From positions 123,584 to 143,583 of the forward strand of contig JBNGIO010006003.1 in assembly GCA_049999805.1 (NCBI GenBank): 20,000 nt of DNA, in the 5' to 3' direction. Below the pieces are notes generated by a model. The model was not told where the DNA came from, made no database searches, and saw nothing but the letters and a program-made list of their open reading frames with translations. Source of the stretch: Folioceros fuciformis. Its lineage: Eukaryota. The translations under genes and the position numbers were made by a program. Of the stretch, positions 3,645 to 18,965 are shown piece by piece (within the stretch, counting starts at the first letter, position 1; each line of letters opens with the position of its first letter).

Positions 3645-6600
3645 TTACCCTGTGAGAACTCCTGCTAGAATCTCGCTCTTGCCACGAACTGTAATGGTGT
3701 AGGCGAGGCGGATGGCATCCAGCCACCCTTCCATCAGCTCCCAGGAATCTGCTACCTGCAGGCCGACATCGTTTTCAGGATCAGAAGAGAGGCTGGGGTT
3801 CAGGTGGCGGACAGCAGGGAGAACGTGGAGACCGGACTCACAAAGTATTGTTGCCTGGTGCTTGTGTCGATCCGGAAGCCGCCCCCCACAGGCAGGCTCA
3901 GGTCGGCAGATGGAGTCATGTAGACGATGTCCTCCAGCTCCATTCTGAAGGAGGAGATCTTGACCGGTGTCTTTGCCATGGACGGACTCGAGGGCTCCGA
4001 CCCGCCTGGGTTAGTTATCCTTCGCGAGAAATTTTTGGCGAGCTTCTCTTCTGGTTTATCCATCTTGCAGGTTACACGGTCAAGATCGATTCACGTTAGG
4101 GCTTACAAAACATTCCTCAGCACTCAAAAGTGAACCAGGTAGGTGCACTGAAGTTCGATAGATACCTCGTAGAACGCCTCATGGTCGATGACAAACCACA
4201 ACCTCTTCCAGTCATTATGCGGGGCTAGAGAATCATCCCCGGGATGAACAAGCAAGTAGCCTGCCTTCAGGTATGGCAGAGGAAGCTGCAGCCATTGCAA
4301 ACACTGCATGTCAGATGGACGTTTCATCACGCGTCACAAGAACACAATCCCAAAATTCTCATCGTCTTCTAATAGACTCAGGAGGGGACGAACGAGCACC
4401 ATTGATCTGACAAGCCGAAGAGCACTCCTGTAAACCTGCCGGCTTCAACCCACACAAGACTAACGGTGAGAACACAACACAGCACAACTTCAATTGGGCG
4501 TGAAGCCTACCAGAGCCCACAGAGGAAACAATCTACAAACTTCGATGGTTCAAGAGGATCCAATGACCAACCGGATAGTCGGGCTTCAAAGAATGTGCAG
4601 CGGCGATGTAGATGGCTGATTGGCTGTACAGTTCAGAAGGCATGTGGTCTGGTCGAGATACTTTCCGACCACTTCGAAGCGTGTCCTCAGCTAGGCCATA
4701 CTGCACATGGCACAAGGAAGTTATTGGCTTGCAATATGCATTTCAGGAGTGAAATGCAAAAAAGGGGAACCACAGGGCTCCGTCATCTCAACACACTCAC
4801 CAGGACAGTACCCAGGTTGTACACTGCTCGATGAAAGTCAAAGCGGAGTCCTATTGCAGCCCGAAACTGCAACAGAATCAAACGAGTGGTGAGTTTCTCC
4901 CTTAGGCAAAATGGATGAGGCAAAAGTGACGACAAAAATTGCAGCTCAACTGTCTTTCACCCTTGAAAGCAATCGACTCGTGGTGTCGGTGAGCGAGAGA
5001 GGGGAATGGGTGGCGGTGGGGAATGAGGGTGCTGCAGTCTATACTTAGCTTACCTTTCTTATTGCACTCCTTATGATTCCACGCTTCTCCTTAAGTGGAA
5101 CTATAGCGCCAAGCTCCTGCGACAGTCGACACCCTTCAGAAACTTTGCAAACATATCACACGGGACCAGTCCGTGTTGCAAACAGTGGGTTGTCCCACCT
5201 GCAGTGCCAGTCCCCAGTTGTTGAGAGCCTGCAAATCACCACAAGAGTTAATCGTCTGTGCTAGGCAGTTACTCACGACAGCACCCTTTTCAATACAAAA
5301 GCAACTGCTGATCTACAAAAGAATGCCCTGAGATGCTAGGGCCCAGGCATCCACCTGCGGGCTGTTCCAGTTGAGCTGCAAAGACCTTTCGTACTTCTCA
5401 CAAGCCTGCACAGGTGCCCAATGACCCCACTTATTTCTATCCCCACTGCGAGGACTGAAGGGACCCTAAACTCGAAGCCTGCAATGCACAATCCAATCCC
5501 ATAAACTTGAAGCACAAACAGGGAAGTTGGAACAAAACCTGCTTCCAAAGTTCCTCTGCCTCCTTGGTTCTACCCCTGATCTTTGCACGATCAGAAATGG
5601 CAATCGCCCAGTTGTAGTACGCCTGGTTGCAACCATCAAACTCTCACTGTGAGAATCGCTGAATAACACATGAACAACAGCTTCTCCCACCACCGGAAAG
5701 ATGGCCCCAGGGCCCGGAAACTGGAAAATACAGGGTGTTCACACCTCATGGAGCGACGGGCAGATACTAATCGCAGCTTCGTACTTGCTGCACGCATCTT
5801 CAAGCAGCACATCCTTTCCCGGGGGGCCACCATCTAGTGGCGTGTTATCCGCGGTTTCCTGCGCCCACGTACAAAGAAAAGACTCTGAAAAGAGCAACGC
5901 CTCCTGAGCCCCCAACCCACAGTCCCGACGATCATGACACCCAACCTCCCACGAACTCCGCACCAACTCACCTGGAGCACCAAAGCCCAATTGTACATGG
6001 CATCGAAGTCATCCGCGTTGGCAGCAACCGCCCTGGAGTACCTGAACCAAAACAGCCCAAATCCCACAATTCAGCATCCCGATCCCAGGATCTCGCTCAC
6101 TCACAATCCAATTCTCACCTCCTGGCAGCAAAAGACAACATCCTTTGCCGAGAGTGCTGATCATCCTCCCCAGGCACTGCACTACTGCGGANNNNNNNNN
6201 NNNNNNNNNNNNNNNNNNNNNNNNNNNNNNNNNNNNNNNNNNNNNNNNNNNNNNNNNNNNNNNNNNNNNNNNNNNNNNNNNNNNNNNNNNNCTTCTCCTC
6301 CACGATCTCACTCACATGCGCTTGAACTTCCACGTGCACTTGCTCCCCGGTCACCTGCTCCTCGATCTTCCCCAGCTGCCCCTCCACTTTCTCTTGCTCC
6401 TCAATCCTCTGCTCCTGGATCCCATTCCCATGCTCCTCGATCTCACCCACCTGCCCCTGCACCTGCTCCCGCTCCTGCTCCTGCTCCTCGATATCGCCCG
6501 ACTGCTCCTTAGCCTCCGTCACAACCTCGGGGTGCCCCTCCACAGGTTCCTCGATCTCACTACCCCGCACGGCCTCCTTCCCACAGTCCTGCTCAGGCTG

Positions 6601-6786
6601 CTGATCAGCCTCCTTCCCAGAGTCCTGCTCAGGCTGCTGACCAGCCTCCTTCCCAGAGTCCCGCTCAGGCTGCTGACCAGCCTCCTTCCCAGAGTCCTGC
6701 TCAAGCTGCTGATCAGCCTCCTTCCCAGACTCCTGCTCATCCACGAGCACCTCAGAGTCCCCGGTTGCCGTGGCCATCCCGGGCAT
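3645..6786 (-). CDS. HLB1: HLB1-like protein (HYPERSENSITIVE TO LATRUNCULIN B1 family; acidic N-terminus, TPR repeats, C-terminal PH-like domain); 13 exons
   Basis: Hand-spliced exons, all GT-AG and phase-consistent: 6786-6119 (spans the N gap; alternative ATG at 6777), 6041-5972, 5858-5745, 5622-5539, 5405-5355, 5228-5199, 5116-5054, 4866-4801, 4700-4572, 4435-4400, 4285-4166, 4063-3842, 3755-3645 (TAA). The product has HLB1-type motifs: [158 protein letters not shown]...LAGVLTG*. Introns are 77-187 bp. Confidence 0.92.
6192..6291. other. Assembly gap (100 N placeholder) inside HLB1 exon 1
   Basis: Exactly 100 N, next to Glu-rich repetitive coding sequence. The true length is unknown. Confidence 0.99.
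6572..6739. repeat. 36-bp coding minisatellite (about 4.7 copies) in HLB1 exon 1, encoding EQDSGKEA(G/D)QQ(P/L)
   Basis: Unit starts (gcctccttccc) at 6572, 6608, 6644, 6680 and 6716, an exact 36-bp period. Confidence 0.93.
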
Positions 6787-6896: not shown

Positions 6897-7020
6897 TTTT
6901 ATACAACCCCGCCACATAGCGGCAAAGAAACCATGGGACGAAGGAAGCTTCCGGTTTCCGCCATGCCCTAAATCTCGGACTCGTTGGTACACATGGGGCG
7001 ACTGGGCCTCGGACTGGGCG
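6897..7020 (-). promoter_or_regulatory. Putative HLB1 core promoter: TATAAAA box with upstream site II-like TGGGCY motif
   Basis: Minus-strand TATAAAA at 6903-6897, about 110 bp before the ATG at 6786. A duplicated gactgggc motif at about 7000-7019 includes one TGGGCC. Confidence 0.4.
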
Positions 7021-7043
7021 GGTCTGCGCTGTCTTTGCATTTA

Positions 7044-10000
7044 CTACTGGCTATCTCCGCAAGAACAGAAGCCATCCTTAAACCGATGAACGCGATGGGC
7101 ATCTCTAATAATTATCTCTCGATGTTCTATTCTCGAGATGACCTTGGTGCCGGCGTGGCAATGGCCACACATCCTGAGATTCTTGCTGACCACCAGAGTG
7201 GTGCCCGGAGGGGTGTTGAGGAGGCCGAAAGCTAGAGCCAGCTTTTCGGCATGTTTGCACAAGGCATCTTCACTTTCCTGGAGAGGTCCAGGCCCGAGCA
7301 CCGGGTTCGAGTCCCTGCATGCCTCGAAAAGTGTGTTGAGGCTGTTGAGCTTGGCCGAGGTGTCGTCCCTACTTCTGCCTACTATGAATTCGTGTACCTG
7401 GCTACCCACCTCGATGAGGGCCCTGGCGGGCTTCTTTTGGGCACCTGCGGACTGCATCATGGTTTCCACTTGGTCAACATCCGCCCACCTGCCCGCTTCT
7501 GCGTAGATGTCGGACATGAGGGCGTAGGCGGAGGCATGTTGGGGTACCAGGTTCACGAGGCGGTGGAAGCAGCTCCTTGCTAGCTCGACATGGTTGTGGG
7601 CCTTGCAGGCTGTGAGGAGAGATGTCCACCCGATGGAATCCTGCTGTAGTGGCATTGTGTGGAGCATGGTTGCTGCTTCCTCCAGCCGGCCGGACCGCCC
7701 CAGGAGGTCTACCAAGGAGTTGTAATGCTCGACCTGGGGCTGGATGCTGTAGTCACGGGACATCATGGTGAAGTAGTTCTGGCCCTCGGTCACTAGACCC
7801 GCATGGCTGCATGCCGCCAGCAGACATGTGAAGGTTGCAGCATCAGGTTGGACTCCCTCTTCCTGCATCCTGGCGAAGCACTGCATAGCCATGGCGCAGT
7901 TGTTGTGCTGACCGTAGCCGCCGATGAGGGCGTTCCAAGTCACCAGATCCTTCCTCCCTGTACTATCGAATACACCCTGTGCGTCCTCCAGGTATCCGCA
8001 TTTTGCATACATGTCCACCAGACTGCTACCCACAAACGCGTCATTTTCAAGTCCCTTGTGCAGGATGTCAGCATGTATCTGTTGTCCTTCCTGAATGGCT
8101 CCCAGTTTGCCACAGACCTTTAATACACACGAATATGTGACAAGGTCAGGCGTCAAGCTTTCTTGCTGCATTCTGAAATATGCCTTAAGGCCATCGTGGC
8201 CGAGCCCATGCTCCGCGCATCCGGCGATGAGGGTGTTCCAGGTTGCCACATCTTTTGTCTGCAACCTTTCGAACAAGACACATGCATCTCCCATGCTTCC
8301 GCATTTGATGAACATGTCTATCAAGGCGTTCCCAACGCACAGATCTGATTCAAGTCCTCTTGCCAGAACCTCAGCATAAACCTTCCTGCCCTCCTCTAAG
8401 TTTCCTAAGCTACCACATGCTTTCAAAATGCTTACATAGGTGAAATTGTCTGGGACCGCGGCACTCAGAAACATGCTCCTGAAAAGTTCTATCGCCTCTT
8501 GCCCCAGCTCATGCTGAGCGTAACCTGCAATCATGACATTCCATGTCACCAAGTCCCTGGCCAGCAATCTGTCGAATACTCTGCGAGCATCCTCCAAGCT
8601 CCTGCATTTGGCGTACATATCAACCAACATGCTCCCAACCAGCTCGTCCTCCTCAGCTCCTCTTTCCAAAATTTGGACATGAATCTGCCTGCCTTCGTGT
8701 AAGTTTCCAATGATAGCACACGCTCTGAATAGGGCCGCATATGTGGCATTGTTAGGCACAATTCCATTCCCTTGCATCCTCATGTACAGCTTGTGGGCTT
8801 CATCCACAGGCCCCTGATGGACGTATCCCGCAATCATGGCAGTCCATGAAACCACGTCTTTTGAAGGCAATTTGTCAAACACCCGTTGGGCATCTTCCAT
8901 GCTTCCGCATTTTATGTACATATCTAACAGACAGTTTCCCAGTGAGCTATCAGCTTGAAGTCCCCTTTCAAGGACACGGGCATGAATCTGCTTGCCTTTC
9001 TCCAAGTGCCCTACACTGCCGCATGCTTTCACAACAGCGACAAGGGTTACATGATTGCCTGCCAACTTCCCATCCTGCTGCATAAGGGCGTAAAGTTGAA
9101 GCGCTTCTAGACCTCGTCCATGCTGAGCATATCCTGCAATCATAGCACTCCATGTCACCACGTTCTTTTTTTGCAGTCTGTCGAAAACTCCGCGGGCCTC
9201 CTCCAGACTACCACATTTGGCATACATGTCGACCAAGGTGCTACCAATATAGATATCAGCTTCCAGTCCCCTTTTCAGGACCTCAGCGTGAATCCCCTTC
9301 CCCTCTTGTATAGCTCCGACATTGCCACATGCTTTAAGAATGCTGACAAATGTGAAGTGGTTTGCTGGACACTTGCCCTCCTGCTGCATCTTCACATAAA
9401 GACTGAGCGCTTCCTGACCACACCCATTTTGAGCATAACCTGCAAACATAGCATTCCATGTCACAACATCTGTGCTCGGCAAATTGTCAAAGACATATCT
9501 GGCCGTCTCCAGGCTCCCACATTTAGCATACATGTCTACAAGGGCGCTCCCGACAAATACATTTGTGTCAAATCCATACTCCACCACATCCGCATGAATC
9601 AACTTGCCTGAATCTAAATCCCCTGCACTGGCACATGATTTCAGGACAGCAGCCAGCACAAAATCAGTCGGTCTGACACTTGATTGTCGCATTCGCACAT
9701 ACAATTTGATAGCCTGCTCAGCCTTTCCATGGTCACAGTGTGCTGAAATGATCGAAGCCCATACGAAAGTGTCGGGAGCAGCCAACGTGTTAAAAACCCG
9801 CTCTGCTTCCATCAAACTCCCCGTGGCAGCGTACATCCGAATCAGGTAGTTCGCCATGAAACAGTCCAACGCAGACCCAACTTGTCCAGAGAGGGCATGG
9901 ACACGCCTGCCCACCTCAAGGTTTCTAGTCGCAGTGCACCCTTTCAGGAGAATGTACAACATGTCATTCGGGATGGAAATTCCTCTCCGGTGCATCACGT

Positions 10001-10109
10001 TCACAGCCTCCAGCGCACTTTCTAGCGCTCCCTCCGTCCCGAAATCTGCAAGCTCCAATAGGTCTTCAACAGCCCCCATCCTGCAGGGTCGATCAATACT
10101 GTACCACAT
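7044..10109 (-). CDS. PLS-class pentatricopeptide repeat protein with E1, E2 and DYW:KP domain (candidate U-to-C organellar RNA editing factor); main exon
   Basis: The uninterrupted ORF parses into L-S, six P-L-S triplets, P2-L2-S2 (23 motifs), then E1 (SIGWTSLLTACKAH), E2 (ASAYALMSDIYAEAGRW), KKPARALIEV...VHEFIVG, HAEKLALAFGLLNTPPG, KNLRMCGHCH and IIIRDAHRVHRFKDGFCSCGDSQ*. The ORF-track start at 10115 is GTG; in-frame ATGs are at 10109 and 10079. The true start may lie in upstream exons. Confidence 0.95.
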   Translation of the reverse strand: MWYSIDRPCRMGAVEDLLELADFGTEGALESALEAVNVMHRRGISIPNDMLYILLKGCTATRNLEVGRRVHALSGQVGSALDCFMANYLIRMYAATGSLMEAERVFNTLAAPDTFVWASIISAHCDHGKAEQAIKLYVRMRQSSVRPTDFVLAAVLKSCASAGDLDSGKLIHADVVEYGFDTNVFVGSALVDMYAKCGSLETARYVFDNLPSTDVVTWNAMFAGYAQNGCGQEALSLYVKMQQEGKCPANHFTFVSILKACGNVGAIQEGKGIHAEVLKRGLEADIYIGSTLVDMYAKCGSLEEARGVFDRLQKKNVVTWSAMIAGYAQHGRGLEALQLYALMQQDGKLAGNHVTLVAVVKACGSVGHLEKGKQIHARVLERGLQADSSLGNCLLDMYIKCGSMEDAQRVFDKLPSKDVVSWTAMIAGYVHQGPVDEAHKLYMRMQGNGIVPNNATYAALFRACAIIGNLHEGRQIHVQILERGAEEDELVGSMLVDMYAKCRSLEDARRVFDRLLARDLVTWNVMIAGYAQHELGQEAIELFRSMFLSAAVPDNFTYVSILKACGSLGNLEEGRKVYAEVLARGLESDLCVGNALIDMFIKCGSMGDACVLFERLQTKDVATWNTLIAGCAEHGLGHDGLKAYFRMQQESLTPDLVTYSCVLKVCGKLGAIQEGQQIHADILHKGLENDAFVGSSLVDMYAKCGYLEDAQGVFDSTGRKDLVTWNALIGGYGQHNNCAMAMQCFARMQEEGVQPDAATFTCLLAACSHAGLVTEGQNYFTMMSRDYSIQPQVEHYNSLVDLLGRSGRLEEAATMLHTMPLQQDSIGWTSLLTACKAHNHVELARSCFHRLVNLVPQHASAYALMSDIYAEAGRWADVDQVETMMQSAGAQKKPARALIEVGSQVHEFIVGRSRDDTSAKLNSLNTLFEACRDSNPVLGPGPLQESEDALCKHAEKLALAFGLLNTPPGTTLVVSKNLRMCGHCHAGTKVISRIEHREIIIRDAHRVHRFKDGFCSCGDSQ

Positions 10110-10164
10110 AAACACAAGCTACTGACCCCAAATAGCTATCAACATGCCACTGCACGCCAAATAC

Positions 10165-10760
10165 CTGAAAGAGTTTCCTTGGTTACATCCGTAGTCAACA
10201 ACTGCGTCCCCAACTAGTCCGTTCCTTGAGGGCAGGGCAGGAGCTCCCCCTGAACCCAAGTTTCGTCCAGTGCTTGATTGAGACCCAGGACAGAAGGTCC
10301 CCCTTGTCGTGCAGTGCATGAAGGCCGGATACATGCAGTTTCTCTGTGGTGATCACCGATAGTCAACTGGAAACTGTGGGCAAAGCAACGCTGGCCAGGT
10401 CTCAATGACCATCTCGAGCCTTGCACAACCCAACCAGATGGCAGGCAGATTGGAATCACAGCAGATTTTACCTTTAAGAACCCCCAATTCCACGACTGAG
10501 AGCGAGCGGCCATGATTGTTGCCCCCATAACACCCCGGCCAATTGCAACACCTGCAAACCAGCTCAAACATCAACACCCATCCAGCAACCTCCTGCCAAT
10601 CTAATCCGAGCCATCACAGATACCCTGCGCATGACAACAGCTCACCATTTTCACATGGGTGGCGCTCAGCTGAGGCCCTTAAGGTCGACAAGCGCCTATA
10701 CCATGCTTTCAATGGCACGACAGGGCTGAATCTGCTCTGATTCAGCCAGGCCAGCACCAT
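10165..10760 (-). CDS. Tentative upstream exons of the PPR gene encoding an organellar transit-peptide-like N-terminus
   Basis: A phase-consistent model is 10760-10646 (MVLAWLNQSRFSPVVPLKAWYRRLSTLRASAERHPCEN; donor G|GTGAG), 10551-10472 (acceptor TTTGCAG, donor AAG|GTAAA) and 10343-10165 (acceptor CACAG, donor CAG|GTATT), joined to 10080 through CCCTGCAG. The introns are 94, 128 and 84 bp. Exon 1 is rich in R, S and L with no acidic residue in the first 30 aa. The middle acceptor is the least certain. Confidence 0.5.
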
Positions 10761-10993
10761 TCTTCCCTCAAGACGACCACTTCTCTTGGTCGCCCAGTGA
10801 GGTGACAGACTGCGGGGTAAGAAGTGCACAGGTACGCCTGGTACTGGGAAGCTGGACGTAGCGGCCTGAAACAGGCAGAACAGTAGTCGTTCTGTAGTTC
10901 ATCGGGTGGATGAAGTCGTCCAGATACAACAAATCGTGTTCTCAGCTTTGATACATATATGTGAAACTTGCTGGGTACCGGCAAGTGACAGCA

Positions 10994-11025: not shown

Positions 11026-11291
11026 GACAAATTCTTGGTAGACCTTAGGGTTGTCTAGGGGTAGCTCTATGAAACGAGAAGGCGACAGCTTTCGATTCGA
11101 CTCTTGAATCAGGACAAGGTAGGCTGGATCCACTACAGGTGAATAGAATCAAAGCGTAGAACAGGGAAGGGCTCGTGCCAGGTATGGGGGCGTTGGAGAG
11201 AATGAGCTTGTGAGCTTTGGCTCATCAATCTTGGATCTGGGAATGTGAAATTGGCAGCTGTATCCATTGTTCCTGCTGGGGCCGTGGCGGA

Positions 11292-14200
11292 ATGGCGGTC
11301 TCGAACGGCGAGACGGGTGAAGGTGTAGAGGAACGCATCAGGGGTATTCTGCGGGACCTGCATCTTCCGGAGACCAGGGCAGATCATGTTGCAGTGGATG
11401 GAGAGATCAGAGAAAGTCTGAAGAGCGATCAGGTGTTCTTCAAAGCATTTGCTGGTGCCTTAGTTCTGGCGGCTGAGAAAACTTGGCGCACAGGGGCAGG
11501 ATCTGCGTGTTACAAACTGTTAAGATGGTCATGTATTCTGATTAGAGAGTGCGCTGAGATCGTGTCTTCAAAATCTGCGTTCTCCAGGTTAGTTTCTGTA
11601 CAGGGGTCTTTACTCTACGGACTTGCAGGGGCGTCTCGTCGACTGCAAAATGCTAGCAATCGCGCTATATTGCAATTGCTTTCCCAGAAACCCAATCTTG
11701 CCAAGCGTTATGTGGCTGAGCTGCAGGGGAGTGCTGCCGATCCGGTCAGCAGCAGTGGACTCGCCAGAGTTCTCATTCAGCTTGCAACAAGGGATGCAGA
11801 GTTTCTTGAGGAGCACAGGGCAGCTTTCCTTGGACTGTATATCTCTCTGGTATGGTCGTCCAAGGAGAAGCCGTCCAGGAGGTTGATTGAAACATTCCGG
11901 CCTCTTCTGAGCATCTTAAATCACAGTGAATTTGGGAACGTGGTGCAGCCTGCAGTGGTCAAAATGCTTCGCAGGAATCCGGAAACGGTGATGGACGCTG
12001 CCTGTGCTCTTTTCAGCTCAGTAAATTTGGACATGAGTAAATATGCTGTGGATGTCTACACAGCTATTCTCCCACAAGCTAGGCATAGTGATGAAGGGAG
12101 GCGGAAAGACAGTGCCACTGTGGTAGGCAACTTGGCTTTGCACACGAGTGACCAAAAGCTTGTACTGAGCATGTATCAGACTGTCAAGTCGGTGTTGGGC
12201 GGGTCTGAAGGAAAGCTGACATTCCCGTACCAAAGGGTGGGTATGATCGGAGCAATTTCGGCCCTATCGAGGACTGAAGGGGGCGAGCAAATTTCTTCTC
12301 TTGCTGCCTCAATTTGTAAGGATCTGATGATACTGTACAAGGATGAAGGAAATGAAGAAGTCAGGCTTGGGATATTGTCGTCTTTGGGTGTGTGGCTTCC
12401 TCGAGCCAAGAATGGTTTGCCTCAAGATTGTGTCAAGTTCTTTGCCGCTGGTCTGAAGGAGAAGGACAACTTGAGGCGGGGGCATCTTCGTTGTTTAAGG
12501 CTTGTTTGTAGCGATCCTGATTTTGCTACTCAATTACAGACGCTAATTGATCCTATGTTGCAGCTGGTGAAAAGTGGCATAACAAAGCCTGCTCAAAGGG
12601 TGGATGGTATTTTTGCCTTCCTTATATCAGTTTTGATTGCAACAGTGGACAGCAAAGCCAACGACTTGCTTAGCAAGGAGAAACTTTGGCCTATGGTCTT
12701 TCAAAAGGACTCTGTGCTGTTCTCGACATTATTTATTCCTAAGATGGCTGTTGAAGATTGCATCGCTCTTTTGCAACTTGCAGAGGTTTCTGTTTTGCAG
12801 TTTCCTCACCGTGTAACAGACAGCTCATCTACAGCTTCAGACGTGTTCAAGCTGGTTGTCACCCTTCTTTGGCATCCTGATCTCAATGTTCGAGAAAGGG
12901 CCTCTAAGGTTGTGTCGCAGTTGCATAAAGACAATCTTCAGTGGTCAAGGATACTTCTCAGTTCCTTCTGTGAGGCTATTGTTGCTGTAGAGGAGCGACT
13001 GTCCTCTCAGAAGCTTGGTGACATTGCAGAAACTAATACTGAGTCAACTGCTTTGGCACCGTTTGAGACCCTTCTTGGGAAGGCTCTGGTTGCTGTTGCC
13101 TCCCCAAATTTTGAGGGGAATGCAGATGCATGTGTACAGATTCTCCTCATTTCTCATCATCCTTGCGTCGTGAGAGGTCGTAGGAAGGATGTCGTGTGGA
13201 AAGTCGTTGTGAGGTCATGTAGGAAGCATGGGGCAAACCTTGTCTCAGCTTTGGAATCAGAACCTGTACTTTTGTGCAAGTACCTGCTTGGGCGCAGTGG
13301 GTTAAGCAGCAGTCGACCGTCAGAAGCGCTGGCAGCTGTGTCAGCCCTGGCAACTGCGATGCAGACCTTGCCTCAACGTTTGTTCTGTCATTTCTTTCTT
13401 GAAGTTCAACTGCTAGGCCGCCAAGCATTTGATTCTTTAACTGAGAAGGATAGAAAGGATGAATCTTCTGTAATTGAAGCTTCATTGGCTATTCCTGTTC
13501 AACAGATGAAAAGACAAGTTGGAGGACCTGGAAAGAAGGACACCAAAAGGCCAGGAAAGGGAGCCAGTGATGCTGAGAAGTCAAAGTCATCCAAGGAGCT
13601 GGCAAGAGAATTGCAGATGAAGGAAGAAGCTGCAGCACAGCTGAAGGTAAGGGCGGGGAAGGAAAGGGTCTCGTGGCTACTGGAAGCATTGGGTGCTGTG
13701 GCTGCTGCCAATCCCACCTTTGTGCAGAATCAGCTTTCTGTGCTGATTGAGTACGTTGTACCTCTCTTGAGTTCTCCAATAGTGGGAAACAAGGCCTTTG
13801 AGGTTATGGTGAAGCTAGCAGGATGTGTGCCACCTTCGTTGAGGCACTTTGCTCCGGATATTGCTGTGGCGCTGTCACTTGTGGCAGGTTCGCCTTCCAC
13901 AATCTCAGAAGAATTCTCTATCTCCTTGGAACAGCAGGAGATAAGACCTGGATTGGTTAGAAGACTTGTTTTGGGAATGGTAAATGCTTGCAAGGATGGG
14001 CCACTGCCCGCACCAACGTTTTCTCTATTTTTTCCTATTATAGAGAAGGTTCTTTCTATGCCCACCAAAAGTAGCGTGCATGACCAGCTTCTGTACATCT
14101 TCACCTTACATTCTTTCACTGATATGTCACTTCCCCATCTGAAGATGATTTTGGTGTTATATAAATTGTTGGAATGTGTACCTTCCTATCAGCAGCAGAT

Positions 14201-17200
14201 TGTAGGCTTGTTGAACAAGCTTTGTACTGGACTCGACAGCTCAGACCTGGCAGAGGCTCTGTCAGGGCTGTTCTCTGAGCATTTTGCTGTGCGCGCGGCA
14301 TGCTTGAATGCCGTCAAGTATGTGCCTTGCCTTGCGAGGAGGGATGCCCCTCCTGATAGGACTGTGGCTGCCCTCATCTGGATGGCCATGTATGATCCAG
14401 AATGGAAGTGTGCTGAGCTTGCAGAGGAGATCTGGGACCTGTACTCTCATGAACTTGGAAGAGATTATGCCTCGCCTCTTCTCAAGTCGCTTGGACATCC
14501 AAACCTGAATGTGCGGCTTGCAGTCGCTGGAGGTCTTGCTGCAGCTATGGACGAGTATACAACAACTGTGCCTGAAACGCTGTCCTCCCTTTTCTCATTG
14601 TATGTAAGGGATCTTCCTATTGGGGCTGGGAAGGAGGATCCTACCTGGCATTCAAGAGACGGAGTAGCTTTGGGGCTGCATGCTGCAGCAGACATCCTTA
14701 CTGATCGTGACCTTCCTGTTGTTGCCACGTTCCTGATCTCAAGGGCACTTGCGGATAGAAACCCAGAGGTGCGCATAAGGATGCTGAATGCTGGGGTTGC
14801 AATCATAGACAAGCATGGGAAGGAGAATGTTGGTCTGCTCTTCCCAATTTTTGAGAACTATCTTGACACCAAGCCTGCTGACGAAGATCAGCATGATCTG
14901 GTGCGTGAAGCAGTTGTGATTTTCATGGGTGCCCTTGCCAGGCACCTCTTACTGGATGACTCCAAAGTTTCAGCATTTTTGGACAAGTTGTTGGAGGTTC
15001 TGAATACTCCATCTGAGGCAGTTCAACGAGCAGTTGCCAAGTGTCTTCCTCCTTTGGTCCCTTCTCAACAAGATAAGGCACACACTCTTGTTACGAAGCT
15101 TCTTAGTCAATTGCTGCAGAGTGATAAGTATGCGGAACGTCGAGGGGCAGCATTTGGCTTAGCAGGCGTTGTCCAAGGTGTTCGGTTGTCAAGCCTTAAA
15201 AAGTATGGCATCATGGATGCCCTGAAAGCTGGAGCCCAAGATAAGAATGCCAATGCCCGCGAGGGAGCCTTACTTGGCTTAGAGTGTCTCTGTGAATTTC
15301 TTGGCCGGTTGTTTGAACCGTACTTGATTCACATTCTGCCCCTTCTTCTGGTGTGCTTTTCGGATCAGGTCTTGGCTGTTCGAAGTGCTGCAAATGCTGT
15401 AGCTCGTGCTATGATGGCTCAGTTGACTGGTCCAGGGGTGAAATTGGTCCTTCCAGGTTTGCTCAAGGGTCTGGAGGATAAAGCTTGGCGTACAAAGGAA
15501 GGGAGCGTACAGTTATTAGGAGCCATGGCATTCTGCGCTCCACATCAGTTGTCACATTGCCTTCCGACAATTGTTCCGAAGCTCAGTGAAGTCTTGACGG
15601 ATACACATCCCAAGGTGCAGTCAGCTGCACAAACTGCTCTGCAGCAAGTTGGCAGTGTGATTAAAAACCCTGAAATTGCTGCTCTTGTTCCTACACTTTT
15701 GACAGGAATCGCAGATCCAAATGAGCATACCAGGTCTTCCCTTGATGTGGTTTTACAGACCACATTTGTCAACTCCGTGGATGCTGCATCTTTGGCTCTG
15801 CTTGTCCCTGTTGTCCACAGAGGATTGAGAGAGAGAGGTTCTGACACAAAGAAGAAGGCTGCACAGATTGTTGGCAACATGAGTAGTTTGGTGACGGATC
15901 ATGAGGATATGCTTCCTTACCTTAGTCTGTTGATACCTGAAGTGAAGAAGGTTCTGGTTGACCCAATCCCAGAAGTGCGAACAGTTGCAGCTCAAGCCCT
16001 TGGTGCATTGATCAAGGGAATGGGGGAAGAGAACTTCAAGGACCTGGTGCCCTGGTTGCTAGAAACGCTGAAGTCAGAGACAAGTGGTGTGGAAAGGTCA
16101 GGTGCTGCTCAAGGTCTCAGTGAGGTTTTGGAAGCACTTGGCACAAATTATTTTGAGTCACTATTACCTGACATCCTGCACAACTGCTCTCATCAGCGTG
16201 CTGCTGTCCGAGATGGACACCTCACTCTATTTAAGTACCTTCCAAGTGCTTTGGGTTCTAACTTTCAAAAGTATCTAGCAGAGGTTTTGCCCGCAATATT
16301 GAATGGTTTGGCTGATGAGAATGAAGCTGTAAGGGATGCTGCCCTGAGCGCTGGGCACATCTTTGTTGAGCACTATGCAACGACATCTTTACCTCTGTTG
16401 TTACCAGCCATAGAAGACGGGATATTTAATGAAAACTGGAGAATTCGGCAGAGTTCAGTAGAGCTACTGGGAGACTTGCTGTTCAAGGTTGCCGGAACTT
16501 CCGGCAAAGTAGTAATAGATGGTGGAAGTGATGATGAGGGTGCAAGCACTGAAGCACATGGTCGTGCAATCGTGGACGTTCTCGGCAAAGAGCGGAGGAA
16601 TGAAGTTTTGGCAGCAGTGTACACGGTCCGGTCTGATGTCAGCCTCTCTGTACGACAAGCAGCATTGCATGTTTGGAAGACTGTGGTCTCCAACACGCCA
16701 AAGACTCTGAGAGAAATCATGCCCGTGCTAATGAACACTTTGATTTCAGCGCTTGCTTCAACATCCACAGAGCATCGTCAAGTGGGTGCTCGATCCTTAG
16801 GTGAGCTCGTTAGGAAAATGGGAGAAAGGGTCCTCCCGTCTATTATTCCAATACTTGCGCGGAGGCTTGTTGACGAAAACGAAAGCACAAGGCAGGGTGT
16901 TTGCTTTGGACTGAGTGAAGTTTTAGCTAGTGCGGGGAAGCACCAGCTTGTGTCGTACATGGTGGATTTGATCCCTACCATTCAGACTGCCTTATGTGAT
17001 AGCTCTCCTGAAGTTCGTGTAGCTGCAGGCATAGCTTTCAGTACTTTGTTCAAAAGTGCAGGTATGCAGGCAGTTGATGAGATTGTTGCTGCTCTCCTCC
17101 GGAACTTGGAAGACGAGGACAAGTCGGATGTGGCACTGAATGGTCTCAAGCAGATTCTTAGTGTGAGGGCGGCTGCAGTTTTGCCACATATTCTACCAAA

Positions 17201-18965
17201 GTTGGTCCACACTCCTTTGACGCCTTTCAATGCAAATGCCCTTGGGGCGTTAGCAGAGGTCGCAGGCCCTGGACTAAACGGATACCTGTCCACCATATTA
17301 CCTCCGCTTATATACGCCATGGGTGATGAAGATCAAGAGATAGCCTCCCTGACGAAGAAGGCAGCTGAGACGGTGGTTTTGGCTGTGGATGGTGAAGGCG
17401 TGAACTCACTTATTGGGGAGCTGAGTAAAGGCCTCGGTGACACACAGAGCGTTGTCAGGAGAGGTTCTGCGTACTTGACAGGGTTCCTGTTCAAAAATTC
17501 AAATGTTGAGCTGGAGGATGAGGTGCCGAGTCTGTTGACCACACTTATTGTTATGCTGACAGACCCTGACAGTAACACTGTTCAGGCTGCATTAGAGGCT
17601 CTAGCAAGTGTGACGGGCTCAATTCCAAAAGAGAACCTTCAGTCACATATCAAAGTTGTGCGCGATGCACTCTCTACTGCAAGAGACAAGGAAAGGCGGA
17701 AGAGGAAAGGGGATCGGATTCTCATTCCTGGGCTGTGCTTGCCTAAATCCCTGCAGACATTGTTGCCCATATTTCTTCAGGGACTCATGGGTGGTTCTGC
17801 TGAGGTCCGGGAGCAAGCAGCGGAAGGTCTTGGGGAGCTGATCGATGTCACCAACGAAATCACTTTGAAGCCTGTCATTGTCTCCATAACCGGGCCTCTT
17901 ATTCGAATTGTGGGAGACAGATTTACCTGGCAAGTGAAAAGTGCCATCCTGGCAACTCTGGGGATAGTCATTACAAAGGGAGGAATTGCCTTGAAACCAT
18001 TTCTCCCTCAGCTGCAAACGACGTTTATTAAGTGTCTGCAAGACAACTCAAAACCTGTGAGGTCCAGGGCAGCTTGGGCTCTTGGTCAGCTGAGTGCACT
18101 GAGCGTTAGGGTGGATCCAATGGTTGATGATCTCCTCACTCGCCTGCAGGCGTCTGAGAATGGGTTGAATGCAGTGCTGATTGCACTTCTGGGGGTGATG
18201 AAGAATGCTGGCAAGAATGTGAGCGCAAATGTGATCTCCAATGCTGTGGTAGCTTTGCAAGTTCTTCTCAATGCAGAAGAAGGTGACATCAGAGCGCTGG
18301 CAGCAAGGACGTTGGGAATCGTGTCAAAGTATGTTGATGATGGGAACTTTAGTAGGGTGCTGCAGAGTCTGGTAGCATCTCCCTCTCAGCCATGGCCCTT
18401 GCGACATGGCGCAACTATTGCATTGGCATCCGTGCTAAGGCACTCCTCTTCTCGGATCTGTGTGTCCAGTGCTCAGCTGTCAATTGCAACATCAGTCATT
18501 TGCGCGAGAGCCAGGGATGACAAGTCCCCGGTGCGGGAATATGCCGCCAGGGCCATGGGATTTTTGCTGAGTTTTCAGCTGAAAGAGAGCACATGTGGTT
18601 CCGACTCCCTGCCTGAGCTGGTGCCAATGCTGGTGGACCTTCTGAATGATGACACTAGCGAGGTGCGGAGAAGGGCCCTCAGCAGCCTCAAGTTGATGTC
18701 CAAGGCAAATGCAGGTGCATTGGTGGGGTATATTAAGCTGCTGGGCCCAGCCATCGGGAACTGCCTTAAGGACAGCAGCTCCCCAGTCCGATTGACTGCA
18801 GAGCGTGCTGCCTTCCACCTCTTCCAGTTGCCAAGAGGACCAGAGAATCTCCAACTGGCTCAGAAGTATATCACTGGGCTGGATGCCAGGCGCATAGCCA
18901 AGCAAGCAGAGTTCAGCGATGCCAGCGACGATAGTGAGGGAGACTCTTCTCCCTCTGGAGTCTAG
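11292..18965 (+). CDS. GCN1: GCN1 / ILITYHIA translational activator (HEAT-repeat GCN2 activator), single-exon, about 2557 aa
   Basis: One continuous ORF; first ATG at 11292 (the ORF-track start at 11217 is TTG). It contains GCN1 signature segments: VLNTPSEAVQRAVAKCL, KYAERRGAAFGLAGVV, LEDKAWRTKEGSVQLLGAMAFCAP, LPTIVPKLSEVLTDTHPKVQ, KKKAAQIVGNM, LVDPIPEVRTVAAQALG, VERSGAAQGLSEVL, NWRIRQSSVELLGDLLFKVAG, ITGPLIRIVGDRF, LKPFLPQLQTTFIKCL, and the plant C-terminus AQKYITGLDARRIAK. Confidence 0.96.
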   Translation: MAVSNGETGEGVEERIRGILRDLHLPETRADHVAVDGEIRESLKSDQVFFKAFAGALVLAAEKTWRTGAGSACYKLLRWSCILIRECAEIVSSKSAFSRLVSVQGSLLYGLAGASRRLQNASNRAILQLLSQKPNLAKRYVAELQGSAADPVSSSGLARVLIQLATRDAEFLEEHRAAFLGLYISLVWSSKEKPSRRLIETFRPLLSILNHSEFGNVVQPAVVKMLRRNPETVMDAACALFSSVNLDMSKYAVDVYTAILPQARHSDEGRRKDSATVVGNLALHTSDQKLVLSMYQTVKSVLGGSEGKLTFPYQRVGMIGAISALSRTEGGEQISSLAASICKDLMILYKDEGNEEVRLGILSSLGVWLPRAKNGLPQDCVKFFAAGLKEKDNLRRGHLRCLRLVCSDPDFATQLQTLIDPMLQLVKSGITKPAQRVDGIFAFLISVLIATVDSKANDLLSKEKLWPMVFQKDSVLFSTLFIPKMAVEDCIALLQLAEVSVLQFPHRVTDSSSTASDVFKLVVTLLWHPDLNVRERASKVVSQLHKDNLQWSRILLSSFCEAIVAVEERLSSQKLGDIAETNTESTALAPFETLLGKALVAVASPNFEGNADACVQILLISHHPCVVRGRRKDVVWKVVVRSCRKHGANLVSALESEPVLLCKYLLGRSGLSSSRPSEALAAVSALATAMQTLPQRLFCHFFLEVQLLGRQAFDSLTEKDRKDESSVIEASLAIPVQQMKRQVGGPGKKDTKRPGKGASDAEKSKSSKELARELQMKEEAAAQLKVRAGKERVSWLLEALGAVAAANPTFVQNQLSVLIEYVVPLLSSPIVGNKAFEVMVKLAGCVPPSLRHFAPDIAVALSLVAGSPSTISEEFSISLEQQEIRPGLVRRLVLGMVNACKDGPLPAPTFSLFFPIIEKVLSMPTKSSVHDQLLYIFTLHSFTDMSLPHLKMILVLYKLLECVPSYQQQIVGLLNKLCTGLDSSDLAEALSGLFSEHFAVRAACLNAVKYVPCLARRDAPPDRTVAALIWMAMYDPEWKCAELAEEIWDLYSHELGRDYASPLLKSLGHPNLNVRLAVAGGLAAAMDEYTTTVPETLSSLFSLYVRDLPIGAGKEDPTWHSRDGVALGLHAAADILTDRDLPVVATFLISRALADRNPEVRIRMLNAGVAIIDKHGKENVGLLFPIFENYLDTKPADEDQHDLVREAVVIFMGALARHLLLDDSKVSAFLDKLLEVLNTPSEAVQRAVAKCLPPLVPSQQDKAHTLVTKLLSQLLQSDKYAERRGAAFGLAGVVQGVRLSSLKKYGIMDALKAGAQDKNANAREGALLGLECLCEFLGRLFEPYLIHILPLLLVCFSDQVLAVRSAANAVARAMMAQLTGPGVKLVLPGLLKGLEDKAWRTKEGSVQLLGAMAFCAPHQLSHCLPTIVPKLSEVLTDTHPKVQSAAQTALQQVGSVIKNPEIAALVPTLLTGIADPNEHTRSSLDVVLQTTFVNSVDAASLALLVPVVHRGLRERGSDTKKKAAQIVGNMSSLVTDHEDMLPYLSLLIPEVKKVLVDPIPEVRTVAAQALGALIKGMGEENFKDLVPWLLETLKSETSGVERSGAAQGLSEVLEALGTNYFESLLPDILHNCSHQRAAVRDGHLTLFKYLPSALGSNFQKYLAEVLPAILNGLADENEAVRDAALSAGHIFVEHYATTSLPLLLPAIEDGIFNENWRIRQSSVELLGDLLFKVAGTSGKVVIDGGSDDEGASTEAHGRAIVDVLGKERRNEVLAAVYTVRSDVSLSVRQAALHVWKTVVSNTPKTLREIMPVLMNTLISALASTSTEHRQVGARSLGELVRKMGERVLPSIIPILARRLVDENESTRQGVCFGLSEVLASAGKHQLVSYMVDLIPTIQTALCDSSPEVRVAAGIAFSTLFKSAGMQAVDEIVAALLRNLEDEDKSDVALNGLKQILSVRAAAVLPHILPKLVHTPLTPFNANALGALAEVAGPGLNGYLSTILPPLIYAMGDEDQEIASLTKKAAETVVLAVDGEGVNSLIGELSKGLGDTQSVVRRGSAYLTGFLFKNSNVELEDEVPSLLTTLIVMLTDPDSNTVQAALEALASVTGSIPKENLQSHIKVVRDALSTARDKERRKRKGDRILIPGLCLPKSLQTLLPIFLQGLMGGSAEVREQAAEGLGELIDVTNEITLKPVIVSITGPLIRIVGDRFTWQVKSAILATLGIVITKGGIALKPFLPQLQTTFIKCLQDNSKPVRSRAAWALGQLSALSVRVDPMVDDLLTRLQASENGLNAVLIALLGVMKNAGKNVSANVISNAVVALQVLLNAEEGDIRALAARTLGIVSKYVDDGNFSRVLQSLVASPSQPWPLRHGATIALASVLRHSSSRICVSSAQLSIATSVICARARDDKSPVREYAARAMGFLLSFQLKESTCGSDSLPELVPMLVDLLNDDTSEVRRRALSSLKLMSKANAGALVGYIKLLGPAIGNCLKDSSSPVRLTAERAAFHLFQLPRGPENLQLAQKYITGLDARRIAKQAEFSDASDDSEGDSSPSGV

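Follow-up and report, generated by a model that had tools for sequence, protein, structure and literature searches.

A gene on the minus strand of a 20,000-nucleotide stretch of Folioceros fuciformis DNA (contig JBNGIO010006003.1; the whole stretch is referred to here as the window) encodes a pentatricopeptide repeat (PPR) protein that ends in a domain of the DYW:KP class. The gene is intact and transcribed, and it is an ordinary further member of this class. With a probability of roughly three in four, we consider it to encode a nuclear, organelle-directed PLS-type PPR protein, most likely a site-specific uridine-to-cytidine (U-to-C) editing factor, whose C-terminal Asp-Ser-Gln (DSQ) tail would be a product of drift. 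To our knowledge, DYW:KP domains are the only known enzymes that convert U to C in RNA. They are under development as programmable base editors. A preliminary description of this DNA identified the class correctly and over-read the last three residues of the protein.

The domain is read on the minus strand; the preliminary description had named no strand. Translation of 7047-7442 gives 132 residues beginning ..KKPARALIEV, and the domain itself occupies 7047..7433 (129 residues, from the K of KPA through the last Q), with the K of KPA, position 1 in the published numbering, at 7431-7433. The motifs noticed earlier are all present in this translation: the KKPARALIEV start in place of a PG box, the HAEKLA zinc-binding motif with its HAE at 7245..7253 (codons CAT GCC GAA), the CGHCH motif, and the terminal HRF and C-S-C. 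Direct translation of 7155..7184 gives KNLRMCGHCH, that is, K88-N-L-R-M92-C-G-H-C-H. The C-terminus of the domain reads HRFKDGFCSCGDSQ. Its last codons, GAT AGC CAG (7055-7047), encode Asp-Ser-Gln at positions 131-133 of the 133-residue KP numbering, and two tandem stops read directly from the sequence (7041..7046; TAG at 7046-7044, then TAA at 7043-7041) follow immediately, in agreement with the GDSQ end and TAG TAA reported before. The range of 7044-7440 given earlier spans the stop codon and the domain to within a few bases.

Pfam recognizes the domain alone as DYW_deaminase (PF14432) at E = 5e-31, and the longer protein at 1.3e-29. Among solved structures, phmmer matches a synthetic PPR-DYW protein (9kfx, E = 4.9e-35), DYW1 (1.5e-28) and OTP86 (5.7e-21), and an exhaustive phmmer search found 2195 library proteins matching at E <= 1e-3. 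These Pfam and phmmer matches show that the domain is not a chance resemblance. Its frame is an uninterrupted genomic open reading frame (ORF) of 1023 codons at 7044-10115 on the minus strand. An AlphaFold2 model of the domain, with a 26-row alignment as input, has a mean predicted local distance difference test (pLDDT) score of 81.3 and a predicted template modelling (pTM) score of 0.72, and it is of low confidence at just two places, the linker (residues 49-59) and the extreme C-terminus. Only six chains match this model in Foldseek with E < 1e-3, namely 9kfx, which was solved with RNA (template modelling (TM) score 0.80), the DYW domain of OTP86 (7o4e/7o4f, 0.72-0.74) and DYW1 (7w86, 0.60). 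The model thus has the same fold as these DYW:PG structures (TM 0.60-0.80), with which the domain has in common the zinc ligands, the catalytic Glu, a conserved Lys and an Asp at position -3. In contrast to DYW:PG domains, it lacks a PG box, has Ala rather than Ser before the Glu and Met rather than Val before the first Cys, and ends in Gln where PG domains have an embedded Trp.

For the class assignment, DYW proteins were collected with the exhaustive phmmer search, which contributed the best 150 of its 2195 matches, and with two word-indexed searches. All 220 collected proteins had a DYW match; 166 carried a complete domain, ending no more than six residues from the protein end, and 54 truncated or extended ones were dropped. 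Sorted by motif, the 166 domains comprise 100 with a PG box and HSE, 25 with HAE (including the domain studied here, the query), 19 with HCE, 21 with HSE and no PG box, and one other. Hidden Markov models (HMMs) of reference sets defined here by motif, as distinct from the published HMMs, score the query at 183.8 bits for the HAE type (n=24, query excluded), 156.1 bits for the HCE type (n=19) and 138.1 bits for the PG type (n=100), the last being about 45 bits below the HAE type. A quick IQ-TREE tree of 96 rows, made of all 66 non-PG rows and 30 of the 100 PG rows chosen at random, has few columns for its many rows, and only its deep KP/PG split is trustworthy. At that split, a branch with a support of 96 in the Shimodaira-Hasegawa-like approximate likelihood ratio test (SH-aLRT) parts 44 PG-like from 52 KP-like rows, and the query lies on the KP side.

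Within the KP side, the query belongs to a clade of 22 rows, all of them HAE (support 82), and there to a subclade of 15 rows (SH-aLRT 90). This subclade includes the DRH/GRP clade of 8 rows, with one protein from the hornwort Nothoceros, and the sister clade of 7 consists of named fern proteins from Adiantum, Pteridium and Ceratopteris (support 99). The query shares the 15-row subclade with the hornwort DRH/GRP subgroups, lying outside the DRH/GRP clade in a polytomy beside it. Its nearest proteins are 63-64% identical over the domain, the best identity to any protein found, and four of the ten close KP matches carry a name (Pteridium, Nothoceros and, twice, Ceratopteris). Membership in the DRH/GRP subgroups was rejected, as the protein ends in DSQ and lies outside their clade.

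The motif composition agrees with these placements. KPA replaces the PG box at the domain start, as seen in alignment with five 133-residue KP domains, and Ala precedes the catalytic Glu (H65-A66-E67, HAE rather than HSE). The HxE(x)nCxxC signature is present, as is the second zinc site formed by the His of CxxCH, the His of HxF and CxC; His65, Glu67, Cys93, Cys96 and the second-site ligands are invariant columns in the 26-row alignment. Lys88, within KNLRMC, and Met92 are present, the xHP motif and the DYW end are absent, and a PLS-type array with E1 and E2 motifs lies upstream of the domain. According to published definitions, the KP class is marked by the KP start and by a hydrophobic residue, usually Ala, before the Glu (PMC9478123, PMC11332814), and the Ala of HAE has been described as KP-specific (PMC9478123). 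By HMM scores, tree and fold model, the domain is therefore assigned to the DYW:KP class; the HMM and tree comparisons proposed in the preliminary description group it with KP and not with DYW:PG domains. A PG-type domain was rejected on KPA, HAE, Met92, DSQ and the 45-bit lower PG score.

The DYW:KP proteins of hornworts, lycophytes and ferns, and the consensus designs KP1-KP7 derived from them (Ichinose et al. 2022, PMC9478123), have the same architecture, in which a PLS array with E1 and E2 precedes a C-terminal domain some 130 residues long. Common to these and the query are the KP(A) start, HAE...CxxC, Lys88, Met92, an Asp at -3, and the absence of both xHP and a DYW end. The query differs from the DYW:KP references in length (129 residues against 132/133), with four linker residues missing, in having His in the CxDCH motif, and in a DSQ end that is not found among 28 comparison proteins. 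The gap relative to the 133-residue references lies around positions 45-48 (about 7290-7310 in the window), and it leaves no counterpart of position 47, a site linked to editing direction in KP6.

Residues were numbered by aligning the query to the five 133-residue KP domains, whose Lys88 and Met92 sit at the published positions. The query then reads K1-P2-A3, Leu6, Ile17, Lys64, His65-Ala66-Glu67, Lys88 and Met92, followed in the C-terminal half by Cys93, Cys96, Ile113, Ala116, Val119 and Asp131-Ser132-Gln133. A Lys four residues after CxxCH is also kept (Lys101, counting from C93). All catalytic and zinc-binding residues are thus present. In designed KP proteins, the changes HAE to HAA and CxxC to AxxA abolish U-to-C editing, and HAE to HSE weakens it in bacteria (PMC9478123). 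Both U-to-C editing and the RNA-protein crosslink require Lys88 (PMC11845758), and in the proposed chemistry a lysine attacks uracil C4, forming a Schiff base that is hydrolyzed to cytidine (PMC11332814). D116A and I119V pushed KP6 towards U-to-C, and Cys6 and Thr17 favoured the same direction (PMC11845758). With Ala116 and Val119, the query is at both sites in the state that favoured U-to-C in KP6. The DRH rows have these two residues as well, together with the HRF motif and Asp131, but carry Cys6 and Thr17 where the query has Leu6 and Ile17.

The preliminary description presented DSQ as a noteworthy, non-standard terminus in a class whose usual ends were said to be GRP, DRH or DYW-like. That DSQ is noteworthy in this way is not supported. 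The tail was compared across 29 HAE-type proteins including the query, and the 28 others carry 22 different endings after CxC. GDRH occurs four times, and EDNG, GDMF and GDSF occur twice each, both GDSF ends coming from one 90% cluster. Endings seen once are DHV, DNH, DHH, DDL, DDT, DSP, DQG, DYV, DRF, DTF, GRP and some shorter or longer tails. In a 25-row alignment, the final two columns are by entropy the 8th and 7th most variable of 129, and Asp at -3 is found in 20 of 24 HAE-type rows and kept in the query as Asp131. DRH and GRP are names of two hornwort subgroups only (PMC9478123, citing Gerke et al. 2020), and DYW-KP proteins are described as having no shared conserved C-terminal motif (PMC11332814).

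The C-terminal Asp is highly conserved except in GRP proteins, where its Lys partner becomes Glu (PMC9478123). The GRP row P0085 carries this Glu, as published; the query keeps the Asp131/Lys pair, whereas GRP proteins have Gly and Glu instead. The tail of OTP86 is DSW, in which the Asp bonds Lys928 and the Trp stacks on a zinc ligand, while the middle residue, Ser, faces the solvent and its mutation is reported to be without effect (PMC7611903). Ser at -2 is therefore found in both tails, DSQ and DSW. Asp131 is thus the part of the tail with a known role, and it is kept together with its Lys partner. Ser132 is unremarkable, and Gln133 adds a further state to a position that varies freely. Because these two residues occupy freely varying positions, the DSQ tail is read as lineage-specific drift.

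Tabulation of termini found DSQ in none of the 28 other HAE-type proteins, yet the endings vary freely. A full-text literature search, which does not extend to the supplements where such tables sit, found no paper that combines DSQ with DYW and pentatricopeptide. The suggested derivation of DSQ from DRH by two substitutions is sound as codon arithmetic, but the query lies outside the DRH/GRP clade, in a polytomy. The proposed use of the tail in dissecting editing direction has some basis in the shift of KP6 that included F133H: together, E64G, L113V and F133H, all away from the active site, turned this design into a C-to-U editor (PMC11845758). Against it, experiments have already addressed this position, and natural proteins differ widely there. 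A catalogue of 3,761 KP domains from 68 plants also exists already (PMC13386178).

A rarer deviation than that of the tail is the His in CGHCH (7161..7163, minus strand), where CxDCH has Asp. The motif was found in 158 domains (8 of the 166 had no match), and in 148 of them this residue is Asp. By type, Asp occupies the site in 17 of 22 HAE, 95 of 98 PG and 16 of 17 HCE domains, and in 20 of 21 HSE domains without a PG box. The nearest relatives, P0077, P0005 and P0004, have His, Asn and Ala there. In OTP86, the corresponding D922 stabilizes an autoinhibited, inactive ground state, and U-to-C editing may not depend on strong autoinhibition according to the same study (PMC7611903). It is conceivable, if improbable, that the query and these three relatives constitute an undescribed KP subtype with the CxDCH Asp lost, the gating linker shortened and free Dxx tails. 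If true, the subtype could be a constitutively 'open' aminase with a different turnover, release or direction, and such natural enzymes might finish U-to-C editing where consensus designs stall as crosslinks.

The gene extends beyond the 1023-codon genomic ORF. In its spliced form, the longest ORF has 1068 residues and begins with an ATG at 10334-10332. The last coding exon (7047..10080, minus strand) is covered over 6950-10079 by contigs of run X3, which comes from the organism that is the likely source of the window. The individual matches span 6950-8031, 8004-9537 and 9510-10079 and contain no other letters, and 0 differences are found up to 10800. One X3 contig runs on from 10079 to 10164-10373 and then to 10643-10800. 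It joins 10079 to 10164 across an 84-nucleotide intron within the coding region (10081..10164), and it skips two introns of the 5' leader, of 98 nucleotides (10374..10471) and 94 nucleotides (10552..10645). All three introns lie near the 5' end and have GT..AG borders. Between the two leader introns, an exon of 80 nucleotides (10472..10551) would fit 77 unplaced letters of the X3 contig, three bases being ambiguous at the joint. This contig is taken as a spliced transcript and the gene as transcribed. The first coding stretch (10165..10334) adds an N-terminal extension of 57 residues, rich in Gly, Ser, Thr and Arg and with few acidic residues. By its composition, it would fit an organelle presequence.

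Pfam families upstream of the domain are PPR, PPR_2, PPR_1, PPR_3 and E_motif. The PLS array (7638..9968, minus strand; Pfam PPR/PPR_2 E about 1e-107) consists of 23 motifs in the order L-S-(P1-L1-S1)x6-P2-L2-S2, and the E1 (34 residues) and E2 (33 residues) PPR-like motifs follow at 7437..7637 (E_motif E = 6.7e-15). The tiling of motifs (lengths 35/36, 35 and 31) is gapless and counts 25 motifs with E1 and E2, ending exactly before KKPA. By the PPR code, the array presumably reads U ? n G Y n A A n U A n G U n U U n G U n U; E1 and E2 come next, and then the edited base.

The spliced leader contains an upstream ORF of 71 codons (10353..10760, minus strand; ATG at 10760, TGA at 10355-10353) in the same frame as the main ORF, ending six codons before the main ATG. 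Its start, with many Arg, Ser and Leu residues, resembles a presequence. A second CAG acceptor, 30 nucleotides downstream of the one used (joint 10344/10343), would drop the stop in frame and lengthen the N-terminus; of these leader splice forms, the stop-containing one is the only one seen. Just downstream of the PPR gene lie a 36-nucleotide tandem repeat (6572-6739, 4.7 copies, 94% matches) and a 100-N assembly gap (6192-6291). The X3 contig over the 3' end of the gene reaches about 280 nucleotides past 6950 into this gap and repeat region, and the 3' untranslated region (UTR) may extend to the repeat.

For two related organisms, B (run X4, DNA, and run X5, presumed RNA) and C (run X6), there are contigs that span the 3' part of the gene and are roughly 92-95% identical to it. 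Among the differences listed for B and C, 13 substitutions and four insertions of 1-2 bases fall in the 3' UTR at 6988-7034, and none falls in 7047-7121, the last 25 codons including GDSQ. This absence of change is taken as real because single-contig differences of the same depth are listed on both sides. Farther upstream, the listed differences include about 10 amino-acid changes, with clusters in the linker and at residues 988-998, together with Leu6 to Phe. The X5 contig of organism B lacks three bases of a tac-tac repeat at 7042-7044, which leaves one stop; the X4 DNA contig of the same sample does not have this deletion. A search for orthologous fragments from related organisms among shorter proteins gave nothing above 58% identity, so the DSQ end in the relatives is read from the contig difference tables only. 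The pattern of differences shows that the protein truly ends at the stop, and that the tail appears stable over a short evolutionary distance. Conservation of the tail in B and C is no sign of a special function; it is expected at about 92-95% DNA identity.

The mechanism suggested for this protein is carried over from what has been published on consensus-designed KP proteins. Its PPR array would bind about 25 nucleotides upstream of a single organellar site, with one motif per base, and the domain would then convert the target U to C. Glu67 would shuttle protons, and the zinc held by His65, Cys93 and Cys96 would supply the hydroxide that releases cytidine. Asp131 would pair with Lys101 and steady the second zinc site, a structural one whose ligands are His97, the His of HRF and C-S-C. 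Ser132 and Gln133 would vary freely, and DSQ would be lineage-specific drift on a working enzyme rather than a new functional type.

Several observations weigh against a U-to-C editing factor with a drifted tail. In the papers cited here, editing activity was demonstrated only for consensus-designed and not for natural KP proteins, and only three of seven designs were active in E. coli (PMC9478123). Lys88 is conserved in C-to-U (PG) domains too (PMC11845758) and is therefore not diagnostic of the KP class. The query has Leu6 and Ile17 in place of Cys6 and Thr17, a linker four residues shorter than in most KP domains with position 47 gone, and His instead of Asp in CxDCH. On the side of the data, the RNA label of run X3 is itself a guess, for which the spliced contig is the sole support, and the unchanged last 25 codons come from the listed differences alone. 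Finally, KP6 also edits C to U in human cells and in vitro (PMC11845758, PMC11332814), and because it edits both ways, direction is not readable from class membership alone. Alternatively, the protein could be of the KP type and yet act mainly, or additionally, as a C-to-U deaminase, its class label carrying no fixed direction. The dual activity of KP6 and the absence of Cys6 and Thr17 speak for this, as does the triple change that switched KP6 to C-to-U, since one of its sites is position 133, occupied by the unusual Gln of the query. However, the query retains Lys88, Ala66, Ala116 and Val119, clusters with HAE-type rather than PG domains, and has Lys64 and Ile113, not the C-to-U-favouring Gly64 and Val113. 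A C-to-U role is unlikely, if not negligibly so.

The influence of residue 133 on direction in KP6 (F133H) also bears on the idea that DSQ marks a functionally distinct, DRH-derived natural variant with an altered editing direction or efficiency. The lack of DSQ in the 28 other HAE-type proteins and in papers found by full-text search, and its apparent conservation in contigs of two related organisms, agree with this idea. We nevertheless consider it highly improbable. The last two columns rank 7 and 8 of 129 in variability, DSP and DSF endings exist in relatives, Asp131 and its Lys partner are kept, and the middle residue is solvent-exposed and tolerant of mutation in OTP86, which itself ends in DSW. 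Moreover, the query is not inside the DRH clade, and conservation at about 92-95% DNA identity is expected without special function. The most improbable account of all is that the domain is catalytically dead or the gene decaying, such that the protein would do no more than bind RNA, or would bind nothing. The replacement of an Asp present in 148 of 158 domains, the shortened linker and the upstream ORF in the leader could be read this way, but nothing interrupts the frame of 1068 codons, the domain has all its zinc ligands, the catalytic Glu and Lys88, spliced transcript contigs match the gene, and in relatives the end of the coding sequence is more conserved than the 3' UTR. The closest relatives share a non-Asp residue (His, Asn or Ala) at the CxDCH site, suggesting a tolerated trait of the subclade. 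A pseudogene was rejected, the gene being intact, transcribed and conserved.

A GCN1/ILITYHIA homologue lies at 11217..18965 on the plus strand of the window and runs divergently from the PPR gene. It forms one uninterrupted genomic ORF of 2557-2582 codons, with a first ATG at 11292. Land-plant GCN1 genes normally have dozens of introns. Because it is a single genomic ORF where dozens of introns are normal, this copy looks intronless and possibly retroposed, yet intact. Over a part of 501 residues, the protein is 84% identical to one record and 73-80% identical to proteins of ferns, a liverwort, a moss, a lycophyte, seed plants and Chara; over the full length, its identity to the first of these records is 72%. 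In a tree of 15 rows rooted on Chara, the window protein and the 84%-identical record form their own branch with a long stem. Neither the fern clade nor the seed-plant clade (support 100 each) includes this branch, and it groups neither with the lycophyte nor with the moss-liverwort pair. Of the hornworts, lycophytes and ferns, the three lineages that have KP proteins, the placement would by elimination probably point to a hornwort.

For the DYW:KP family, the DSQ tail opens no new question, as the tail is known to be unconserved and residue 133 has already been mutated in KP6. Natural KP sequence variation is raw material for better base editors, and the gene described here adds one intact, expressed natural KP member from a lineage that is sparse among named proteins.

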